Assembly (NCBI RefSeq): GCF_001677475.2
Contig: NZ_CP015229.1
Origin: Escherichia coli
GTDB taxonomy: Bacteria; Pseudomonadota; Gammaproteobacteria; Enterobacterales; Enterobacteriaceae
Reading direction: 5' to 3' (one strand)
Length of the DNA stretch: 64,000 nucleotides
How positions within the stretch are numbered: the stretch's first letter is position 1; every line of letters begins with the position of its first letter. The position numbers were made by a program. Below are positions 15,001 to 18,000 of this stretch, in pieces.

Positions 15001-18000
15001 ATATTCGGCAAAGACCTTGCGTACATCGTCCGGAACAACACGAGTACTATTTTGACCAGTCGTCGAATAACGATGAATGAGCTGATCGATATTTGCCCCG
15101 CGAACTTCATCACCCAATTCAGTCAGCGCAATGGTCGACTTATTGCCACGTACTGAGCCCAGTTCAAAGGTATCGATACCAAAGGAGATGGTTTCGCCCC
15201 AGCTAAAGGAGAATTTACCGTTTTCGTCAGTTACGCCACGGCCTGAATTGGTGTAGTAGTCAACGCCAGCAACACCGTTCCCCAGGCTATCCACCAGTTG
15301 GCCTTCGGAAAGAATGATTTCAGTGGGTTGATACTGATAAAACTGTTCCGCGTTAGCCGACACGAAGGACGCGTTCAGATCCGGTTTTGTTCCCTCTGTC
15401 GTGACTGGCACTACCGTTGAGGTATGGGTGGACGGCGCTTTATCAGTCGCAGCATTGTTTTCCACCTCTTCATTGACCAGCTTGCTGAAATTGTCTGTTG
15501 CCAGATCAATTTGCTTATACAGTTTTTCAAATCGCGCGCGATCAACCACTGACGAGAAAGTAAGACAAAGCTGTTCTGCATCTGCGGGGCAACTGTCGCT
15601 GGACGTCACCAGAGAGATGGCGTTGGTTTTCTTATTTTCAGAATTCGCCAGCTCCTGCGCGTCCTCCAGACTAAACGACACTTTGTCAACCGCACGCAGG
15701 CTACGCGCAGCTTCTGACTGGGTGTTGAAAGTTGCAATGGTCGTACTGCCAACGACACAACTCACGGTGTTGCCAGGTGTAAAAGTAAAGCCATCGCTGG
15801 ATTCACCATTACAGGTAGCACCAGTTACCCGCTGGCTTCCGCCCAGGGTCAGATAACCCGTTTTCGTAGGAACAGGTTCTGGCTCCGGTTCAGGTGTTGG
15901 CTCAGGATCAGGTGTCGGTTCCGGCGTAGGTTCTGGGTCCGGCGTCGGCTCAGGCGTCGGCTCCGGGTTTGGTGTTGGCTCAGGTTTCACTTCCGGCAAA
16001 GACCCTGTTCCAGAATCTACAGGCGGCGTATCGGAGGAAGATCCGGAACCACCGCCATCACAACCGGCTAACAGGGTTGCACTCAAAATAGCCGCTAAAA
16101 GCGATTTCTTATATTTAAATTTCTTATTCATTAATAACGCAAGTGACAAAATAAAGTTAAAAGATTCGTAACTGGGGAAATAGTTTTATGCTTTATCTTC
16201 TCTAATAATTTCCTCCATTCTTAAGAAAACGGCATCACTGATAGAAAAACAGGTGAATTTTATAAGAATAACCCCTATTTGATGTCTGTCTGGTTATTTT
16301 TACGAAATTTCAACAAACAAAAAATTAACAATCTCTCACAACATAACTATATAAATTTGTTGGTAGTTTTAACGATTAAGATTGCAAAAGCAACAGATAG
16401 AACGGTGTTTGCTCATCAAGCGAACATAATTAATACAGACTTGTTTTGCGTGATAAAAAAACAGATGTTCTCACGCTCTTAATTATTTAGCAGGTTATCT
16501 GAATGCAAAATATTATTGTTTCATGGATAATAAAGCAGGAAATGATTTCCCATTAATAAGACAGAATAATGTAAATGAAGCCGGATGATATTAACGATCA
16601 TCCGGCATTATTGATTTACGAGACTAACATCCCAGTAAACACATACGCCTGCAACAGCGTGATAATGCCGATAACGCTGGCAAAAATCAGACTGTGCTTC
16701 ACGGTGTAGCGGAACAGTTCAGATTCTCGACCCACCATGCCCGTCGCGGCGCAGGCCACGGCGATAGATTGAGGGGAGATCATCTTGCCAGTTACGCCGC
16801 CGCTGGTGTTTGCTGCCACCAGCAGAGTGTCAGAGACGTTGATTTGCTGCGCCGTGGTCGATTGCAGTGAACCAAACAGGGCGTTAGAGGAAGTGTCCGA
16901 GCCGGTAAGGAATACCCCCAGCCAGCCGAGGAATGGCGAAAAGAACGGGAACATCACGCCAGTGCCCGCCAGTACCAGTGCCAGCGTGGTGGACATACCG
17001 GAATAGTTGGTGACGAAGGCGAACGCCAGCACCATGCCAATCGACAATATCGGCCACTTCAGACTAATTAGCGTTTCGGCAAAGACGCCAATCCCTTTCT
17101 TGATGCCCACGCCGAGGATGAAGATAGAGATAATCGCCGCAATAAAAATAGCGGTGCCGCCAGCCGAGAGAGGGTCGAATTTAAACACCGCATCCATTGG
17201 CGTTGGTTGGGCGACAATGGGTGCCGCTTTCAACACTTGTTGATGCAAATGAGGGATCTGGAAATTAATCACCAGTGAATAAAACGCGCCGCCCGGAGCA
17301 AATAACGCTTTAAACGGCTTCATGGTCCAGATGGTGACCAGCACCGTTAAGATTAAAAACGGTGACCACGCACGAATGATTTGCCCCAGACTATATTCTG
17401 AAGGCACGGGACCGCCAGAAGATGGTTTATTCACCACCATCGCACCTGCGGATTGTCCCATGCTGATTGCCGTTTCGGTATTTTTCGGCCGCCAGACTTT
17501 AAGGAATAAAGCGAGTGAGACGATACTCACCAGCGCCGAAGTAATATCCGGCAGTTCCGGACCAATATAGTTAGAGGTAAAGAACTGCGTGACAGCGAAG
17601 CTTCCCCCAGCAACCAGCGCCGCTGGCCACGTCTCTTTCACCCCTTTCCAGCCGTCCATCATTGCTACCAGCCAGAACGGCACAAGAACCGACAGGAACG
17701 GTAACTGACGTCCCGCCATTGCGCCAATGTCGAACGGATCGATTCCCGTTACCTGACCGGCGACCAGAATCGGCACGCCCAACGCACCAAACGCCACCGG
17801 CGCAGTATTGGCAATCAGACACAGCCCCGCCGCGTATAACGGTTTGAAGCCCAGGCCCACCAGCAGCGCACCGGTAATCGCCACCGGCGCACCAAAGCCA
17901 GCCGCCCCTTCCAGCAGCGCGCCAAAGGAGAAACCAATCAGTAACACCTGCAAACGCTGATCGTCAGTGATGGAGATAACCGAGCTGCGGATAATATCGA

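Follow-up and report, generated by a model that had tools for sequence, protein, structure and literature searches.

The AT-rich spacer between glcA and sslE in a 64-kb stretch of Escherichia coli DNA (referred to below as the window) is very probably, with a probability that we put at roughly 0.85, the control region of the sslE-pppA-yghG-gspC-M operon for type II secretion system beta, acting on the minus strand, silenced by H-NS and activated by Fis. Regulation of the orthologous locus by H-NS and Fis is already known from the literature: repression by H-NS, binding of H-NS in vitro, occupancy in K-12 as seen by ChIP, Fis dependence via the F2 site cluster and a mapped transcription start have all been established on orthologous alleles. 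Because the window allele is nearly identical to the alleles that were studied, the same mechanism would be expected to operate here, and the interpretation of the spacer as an H-NS-silenced promoter and leader is supported.

The proposed arrangement starts after the glcA terminator with an AT-rich stretch of about 220 bp that would carry the candidate Fis sites, F2 adjoining the -35 hexamer. A weak sigma-70 promoter (TTGCTT-N17-AAAACT) would then direct transcription from a start near position 16358 into a leader, about 227 nt long, that extends to the ATG of sslE. H-NS, together with StpA, would cover the AT-rich DNA at ambient temperature and block productive initiation by RNA polymerase. 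At 37 C the silencing would loosen, and Fis at F2 would help to bring the polymerase to the weak promoter, so that the operon can be transcribed.

SslE, a colonisation factor that degrades mucin, is also a vaccine candidate, and the operon that starts with its gene encodes the secretion machine that exports the heat-labile toxin in ETEC. The timing and strength of the sslE promoter therefore matter for virulence and for expression of the antigen. How H-NS, StpA, Fis and TypA control the operon is already known from orthologues, and the window contributes one more allele in which the functional block is intact. What is gained is a map at the level of coordinates (terminator, Fis sites, promoter, leader and a spurious ORF) that is useful for annotation.

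Extent, composition and distribution of the spacer

The upstream neighbour of the spacer is the glycolate permease gene glcA (16616-18298, minus strand; identified from the ORF list and from RefSeq records of E. coli loci with an identity above 95%), the stop codon of which sets the edge of the spacer. On the other side lies sslE (yghJ; 11572-16131, minus strand; identified from the ORF list and the RefSeq annotation of similar loci). It heads the sslE-pppA-yghG-gspC..M operon, which occupies positions 157-16131 of the window and in which the gspC-M set is complete and located downstream of sslE, along with pppA-yghG. The preliminary description of this DNA had given no strand for the flanking genes; both are encoded on the minus strand.

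Between the two genes the AT-rich spacer is real. The intergenic region (16132-16615, no strand assigned), delimited by its composition and by the lack of an annotated feature inside it, measures 484 bp and has a GC fraction of 0.302. In the RefSeq records of E. coli loci that are 90-97% identical, K-12 included, no annotated feature was found within the spacer either. The whole window has a GC fraction of 0.521, and a contrast of this size, maintained across 484 bp, is the AT-richness of an H-NS-type target. Indeed, the spacer is the lowest-GC 484-bp stretch of the 64 kb, equally low values being reached by 0.1% of the segments of that length.

The preliminary description had reported a 466-bp AT-rich non-coding gap between the glcA terminator and sslE. 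An AT-rich and gene-free spacer was indeed found, but its size and boundary had to be revised: the spacer is 484 bp long and not 466 bp, because the sslE start in RefSeq-type annotation is the ATG at 16131 (protein MNKKFKYKK...), whereas the former boundary at 16150 follows a longer reading of the sslE ORF, an in-frame TTG extension at 16149. The composition is hardly affected by the choice (GC 0.300 with the earlier coordinates, 16150-16615). The intrinsic terminator of glcA, identified by a terminator scan, lies inside the spacer (16580-16606, minus strand) and consists of a hairpin with a 10-bp stem (GCCGGATGAT/ATCATCCGGC) and a 7-nt loop, followed by TTCATTTA. It is kept in all the E. coli alleles that were aligned and largely also in E. 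albertii, and the forward primer of the published sslE promoter fragment begins at this terminator.

The spacer was found, at a coverage of at least 80%, in 4,069 of 5,426 complete E. coli genomes, with an identity of 90-97% (mostly 90-95%), and the gene order glcA-sslE is the same in all 4,069. The same arrangement is present in E. albertii and in Escherichia sp. E1V33; the E. albertii spacer measures 503 bp, has a GC fraction of 0.328 and is 72.5% identical to that of the window. Sequence changes on a larger scale occur as well, in that natural isolates tolerate an IS200 insertion and an IS4-associated deletion at the spacer. A boundary of a genomic island inside the spacer was not revealed by the strains that lack sslE; the loss in strain S9 is the IS4-associated deletion.

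The closest known counterpart is the yghJ/sslE promoter region of H10407 and UTI89, which occupies the identical locus: it likewise follows the glcA terminator and leads to the ATG of sslE, and it resembles the spacer of the window in length (483-484 bp) and GC fraction (0.30-0.31). The spacer of K-12 is orthologous and 94.8% identical to that of the window. The two differ in what follows: in K-12 the secretion genes have been partly deleted, with only yghF, yghE and yghD left, whereas the window has the full gspC-M set.

Proposed placement of the promoter and Fis sites

Several elements of the orthologous promoter have been determined experimentally. According to the account in PMC5012682, the sslE transcription start was mapped by 5' RACE and agrees with the promoter of H10407, a single start having been determined independently in two strains with concordant results. 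In the same account Fis activates sslE through the F2 cluster, which covers -41 to -68, adjoins the -35 hexamer on its upstream side and is composed of three overlapping sites; mutation of F2 abolished activation by Fis in UTI89, and a further site, F1, centred at -138, was dispensable for activation (PMC5012682). Fis is, next to H-NS, an equally important published regulator of sslE, and one that was absent from the preliminary description.

These positions were carried over to the window in two steps, from the published primers and Fis-site positions to a UTI89-type allele (L012) and from there to the window by pairwise alignment. The forward and reverse primers of the UTI89 promoter fragment, and a third UTI89 primer with a 50-nt homology arm that reaches to the ATG, have exact matches in the E. 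coli type strain ATCC 11775, which identifies the cloned promoter fragment as positions 170-458 of L012, with the ATG at 653. In the window the reverse primer of this fragment maps to 16346-16325, and the sslE start must therefore lie upstream of about 16325. L012 contains three overlapping sites of the Fis type G-N13-C (359-373, 363-377 and 370-384) and another one at 281-295. F1 at -138 and F2 at -41 to -68 can both be accommodated, to within about 1 nt, only if +1 is located near L012 position 426, which is position 16358 of the window.

The start of sslE would accordingly be placed at about A16358 (minus strand), and the core promoter at 16365-16393 (minus strand), with the -35 hexamer TTGCTT at 16393-16388, a 17-bp spacer and the -10 hexamer AAAACT at 16370-16365. 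Both the start and the two hexamers were positioned by fit to the published placement of F1 and F2 and not by measurement. Neither of the hexamers is near the consensus, and the putative TTGCTT-N17-AAAACT promoter was not reported by a simple consensus scan. The candidate counterpart of F2 (16400-16425, minus strand) is formed by three overlapping G-N13-C sites, GTTCGCTTGATGAGC, GCTTGATGAGCAAAC and GAGCAAACACCGTTC; this predicted trio, at 16425-16400, is situated directly upstream of the -35 hexamer, as in the published cluster. The candidate counterpart of F1 (16490-16504, minus strand), which was fitted to L012 281-295 and aligned, has its first G replaced by an A in the window (ATTCAGATAACCTGC).

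The similarity to the studied alleles is highest precisely where these elements were placed. From 16461 to 16344 only one position distinguishes the window from the UTI89-type allele, so that F2, the inferred -35 and -10 hexamers and the region of the start match bar one base. This base, at 16406 inside F2, is an A in the window, in K-12 and in the other alleles aligned and a T in the UTI89-type allele, and it is a non-key base of the candidate Fis sites. The other difference from the UTI89-type allele in a Fis site is that in the first G of F1, and over the entire spacer the best match among the 5,426 E. coli genomes is 97.1% identical. Across eight aligned E. coli alleles the candidate F2 is almost invariant.

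In a comparison of the spacer among E. coli alleles, K-12 and E. albertii, F2 and the core promoter are among the best-kept blocks (79% identity to E. albertii, 100% to K-12), and conservation is lowest in the 5' half of the leader (58% and 91%, respectively). The last 65 nt upstream of the ATG are 83% identical to E. albertii, more than the 72.5% of the whole spacer, and 95% identical to K-12. In E. albertii the hexamers (TTGATT and AAAAAT) are closer to the consensus. The good conservation of the block formed by F2 and the core promoter, together with this shift of the E. albertii hexamers towards the consensus, supports the placement of the promoter.

A second -10-like hexamer, TATAGT (16346-16351, minus strand), follows the inferred -10 at a distance of 19 bp. 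The position is occupied by GATAGT in strain CB209 and by GATAAT in E. albertii, and the conserved sequence points to a possible tandem or alternative start near 16339. Experimental backing for TATAGT as a promoter element was not encountered in the literature found. Use of this hexamer as the main -10, with the start near 16339, had earlier been favoured. It was demoted since it matched just one Fis-like site, whereas a start at 16358 accommodates three overlapping G-N13-C sites as well as the centre of F1. A CRP site at the inverted repeat GCGTGA-N17-TCACGC was rejected as well; the spacing is wrong and varies with a poly-T run, and the right arm is missing in E. albertii.

H-NS silencing and the nature of the AT-rich DNA

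The preliminary description had proposed that the spacer is a promoter silenced by H-NS that drives temperature-dependent expression of sslE. Published data on the orthologues in UTI89, EC958, H10407 and K-12 bear this out. In UTI89 and EC958 sslE is strongly repressed by H-NS at 22 C (Tan et al. 2016, PMC5012682), and the same holds for ETEC H10407, where the promoter region was described as AT-rich, curved and bound by purified H-NS (Yang et al. 2007, J Bacteriol 189:142, as given in PMC5012682). As reported by Tan et al. (2016, PMC5012682), re-examination of the promoter region with BEND-IT again classified it as curved, the effect of temperature is exerted at the level of the mRNA and depends on hns, and Fis and H-NS act antagonistically on sslE. 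The strength of the H-NS control at 37 C differs among strains in that report (PMC5012682), and the quantitative behaviour of the window allele is therefore unpredictable. The K-12 spacer between yghJ and glcA, both on the minus strand, was bound by H-NS in all the ChIP sets compiled by Panyukov and Ozoline (2013, PMC3661553), i.e. those of Grainger, Kahramanoglou and Oshima. Of the checks that had been suggested at the outset, curvature analysis, H-NS ChIP and 5' RACE have thus each been published for orthologues, and promoter prediction was run on the window.

Similar behaviour is known from other thermoregulated virulence genes. The virF gene of Shigella and EIEC resembles sslE in being repressed by H-NS in the cold on AT-rich or curved DNA, relieved at 37 C and activated by Fis, and the comparison of sslE with thermoregulated promoters of this kind is made in the literature itself. 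The eltAB promoter of ETEC, likewise repressed by H-NS on AT-rich or curved DNA and relieved at 37 C, has its H-NS sites downstream of the promoter. For both virF and eltAB the likeness to sslE is an analogy of mechanism only, as the sequences are dissimilar.

On the window itself the sequence features associated with H-NS were compared with controls of the same composition. A wedge-model calculation, with dinucleotide wedge parameters that are reportedly those of Bolshoy et al. 1991, ranks the spacer at the 98th percentile among 484-bp segments of the window, with a curvature peak of about 30 degrees near 16248, i.e. at roughly +110 in the DNA of the leader. Compared with composition-matched shuffles the curvature is not raised (p = 0.135 for the mean and 0.395 for the peak), so that it probably follows from AT-richness and not from special phasing. 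The earlier claim of curved DNA is partly borne out, in that the spacer stands out from the rest of the window but shows no demonstrable excess over what its own composition provides. For the high-affinity nucleation motif of H-NS, TCGATAAATT (Lang et al. 2007), a single match with 2 mismatches was found in the spacer, at 16348-16357 and overlapping TATAGT, a frequency no higher than the average of the window. The simple consensus scan detected 2 promoter-like sites in the spacer, located on both strands within 16482-16516, against 2.4 expected from shuffles. Since neither curvature, nor motif, nor number of promoter sites is in demonstrable excess, it is the composition itself that constitutes the support for H-NS targeting at the level of the sequence. 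The high-affinity motif is not obligatory for H-NS targets.

The promoter-like sites on both strands, and the second -10-like hexamer TATAGT 19 bp past the inferred -10, would also suit a promoter island, in which many overlapping weak promoters on both strands trap the polymerase in unproductive complexes and H-NS mainly suppresses spurious or antisense initiation. Indeed, the K-12 spacer is catalogued as promoter island 3117080_374, one of 78, and H-NS-bound (Panyukov and Ozoline 2013, PMC3661553). That assignment was made with PlatProm, for which predicted starts must be very dense over 300 bp or more, whereas the window was scored by a simple consensus scan, in which the sites do not exceed what the composition predicts. 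Moreover, the single start mapped in two strains with concordant results (PMC5012682) argues against a multitude of competing promoters. We therefore consider it possible, but clearly less probable than silencing of a dedicated sslE promoter, that trapping and spurious initiation are the main issue. A promoter island and an H-NS-silenced, Fis-activated sslE control region complement rather than exclude each other.

It might also be supposed that only a short core promoter has a regulatory role and that the remaining AT-rich DNA is neutral filler at the junction of an acquired secretion island, a view that draws on the poor conservation of the 5' half of the leader (the 58% and 91% given above) and on the insertion and the deletion that natural isolates tolerate. 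Such a filler would be improbable on two grounds: AT-richness has been maintained in E. albertii (GC 0.328) despite 27% divergence, and the published binding and repression by H-NS and the activation by Fis via F2 imply a function that extends well beyond the hexamers.

The leader RNA and the ORF opposite the promoter

With the inferred start and the bound given by the reverse primer, the 5' untranslated leader of sslE would extend over 16132-16358 (minus strand), i.e. about 227 nt with 72% A+U. The sslE ATG is not preceded by a Shine-Dalgarno sequence: the predicted duplex with the anti-Shine-Dalgarno sequence has an energy of +0.7 kcal/mol, versus -8.9 for glcB. In addition, expression of sslE depends on the ribosome-associated GTPase TypA, by a route that is left unexplained in the account of PMC5012682. 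As a speculative proposal, to which we assign a small chance, the leader may be a post-transcriptional control element that sets the output of SslE, as a target of TypA/BipA or of a small RNA, or through S1-dependent initiation. If so, such control would account for the very different amounts of SslE in strains with near-identical promoters; the relatively high identity to E. albertii of the last 65 nt, 83%, would be in line with it. A literature search on the sslE UTR returned unrelated papers only.

The length of the leader, its lack of a Shine-Dalgarno sequence and the TypA dependence with its unexplained route (PMC5012682) could also be taken to mean that the AU-rich leader is itself the temperature sensor, an RNA thermometer or another structured element by which the start codon is concealed at low temperature, and that the effect of H-NS on the DNA would be secondary. 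In the minimum-energy fold a U-rich 5' segment indeed pairs with the A-rich region of the start codon. The stability of the fold is not above that of shuffled sequences, however (z = +0.92), and the covariation term amounts to just -0.13 kcal/mol, with 1 of 56 pairs compensatory and several pairs of the long-range helix broken in E. albertii. Accessibility of the start region rises from 0.28 at 22 C to 0.34 at 42 C, which is inside the range of the shuffled-leader control. No Rfam family matches; at E <= 10 only noise was obtained (snoU19, MIR9563 and RefA1), with scores far under the gathering scores. Finally, it is the amount of sslE mRNA that was reported to respond to temperature, in an hns-dependent manner (PMC5012682). 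With fold, covariation, accessibility and Rfam searches all against it, a thermometer or structured leader was rejected, and we regard it as a shade less probable even than neutral filler.

The upstream ORFs in the leader have no ribosome-binding sites and are not conserved. Among them is a 10-codon ORF (MEEIIREDKA, start at 16218), which was discarded for want of a ribosome-binding site and because E. albertii has not kept its ATG.

Antisense to the sslE promoter and leader, the ORF list contains a 67-codon ORF on the plus strand (16279-16482). The preliminary description had judged it to be probably not a gene; the ORF is present as described, and it failed the coding tests. That it encodes a small protein, which would make the spacer coding, is hardly credible, even though about 60 codons are open in 8 of the 8 E. 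coli alleles examined, with the ATG one codon in (16282) conserved, and an open frame of such length is uncommon in DNA of 30% GC. The TTG start is absent in five of eight E. coli alleles; in six of the eight a frameshift or truncation at a variable poly-A/T run affects the C-terminus, and in E. albertii the frame is interrupted by three in-frame stops. Substitutions are spread evenly over the codon positions (11, 11 and 15 variable sites), and 18 of the 24 variable codons alter the amino acid. The start lacks a purine-rich ribosome-binding site ahead of it, and the ORF is annotated neither in K-12, the record of which is rich in small proteins, nor in RefSeq. The loss of the start, the frameshifts, the stops in E. 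albertii and the flat profile over codon positions led us to reject it as a gene, so that it is best seen as a chance ORF. It overlies the best-conserved promoter block, and the frame is open by default, because this conserved block underlies it.

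Sequence elements of the spacer and of the sslE leader

In the AT-rich spacer between glcA and sslE (window 16132-16615), the variable poly-T run is surrounded by a perfect 6-bp inverted repeat, GCGTGA-N17-TCACGC (window 16448-16476, minus strand). The repeat is kept across the E. coli alleles, with a varying spacer length between its arms, and its right arm is missing from E. albertii.

At the sslE end of the spacer, the last 65 nt of the sslE leader, the inferred 5' untranslated RNA, share 83% identity with E. albertii, versus 72.5% for the spacer as a whole. A Shine-Dalgarno sequence is absent before the sslE ATG (window 16132-16156, minus strand), as judged from anti-SD duplex energies: the best duplex reaches only +0.7 kcal/mol for sslE, whereas glcB attains -8.9 kcal/mol. 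The E. coli-type leader end, together with the start of the gene, is also present on a 1-kb contig of a 'Collinsella sp.' MAG (JAIJJM010000973.1). This contig was binned as part of an actinobacterial Collinsella genome and is probably mis-binned.

Mobile elements and deletions at the spacer

An IS200C element was identified in E. coli EC2257, inserted at the position equivalent to window 16575/16576. In this one natural isolate the element adjoins the glcA terminator hairpin (window 16580-16606, minus strand) and so separates the hairpin from the promoter of sslE. In E. coli S9 an IS4-family element is found in place of sslE through part of gspK, at the equivalent of window ~16574 and downstream, and all that is left of the spacer is its terminator-proximal end. 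The spacer is lacking from about 1,100 E. coli genomes, many of which may carry deletions like that of S9.

Genomic surroundings and source lineage

Downstream of sslE (window 157-11500) the full gspC-M, yghG and pppA set is present, whereas K-12 retains only yghF, yghE and yghD. Elsewhere in the window, the next most AT-rich 484-bp stretches are 27192-27675 (GC 0.308), 40526-41009 (GC 0.331) and 38162-38645 (GC 0.364), which may represent further H-NS-type intergenic regions.

The core genes of window 16616-20825 (glcA-glcB) and of window 40000-60000 (hyb/gss/metC region) displayed a best identity of 98.1-98.3% in a comparison with 5,426 complete E. coli genomes. None of these genomes is thus closely related to the source lineage, which might belong to Shigella or to a deep-branching Escherichia lineage.
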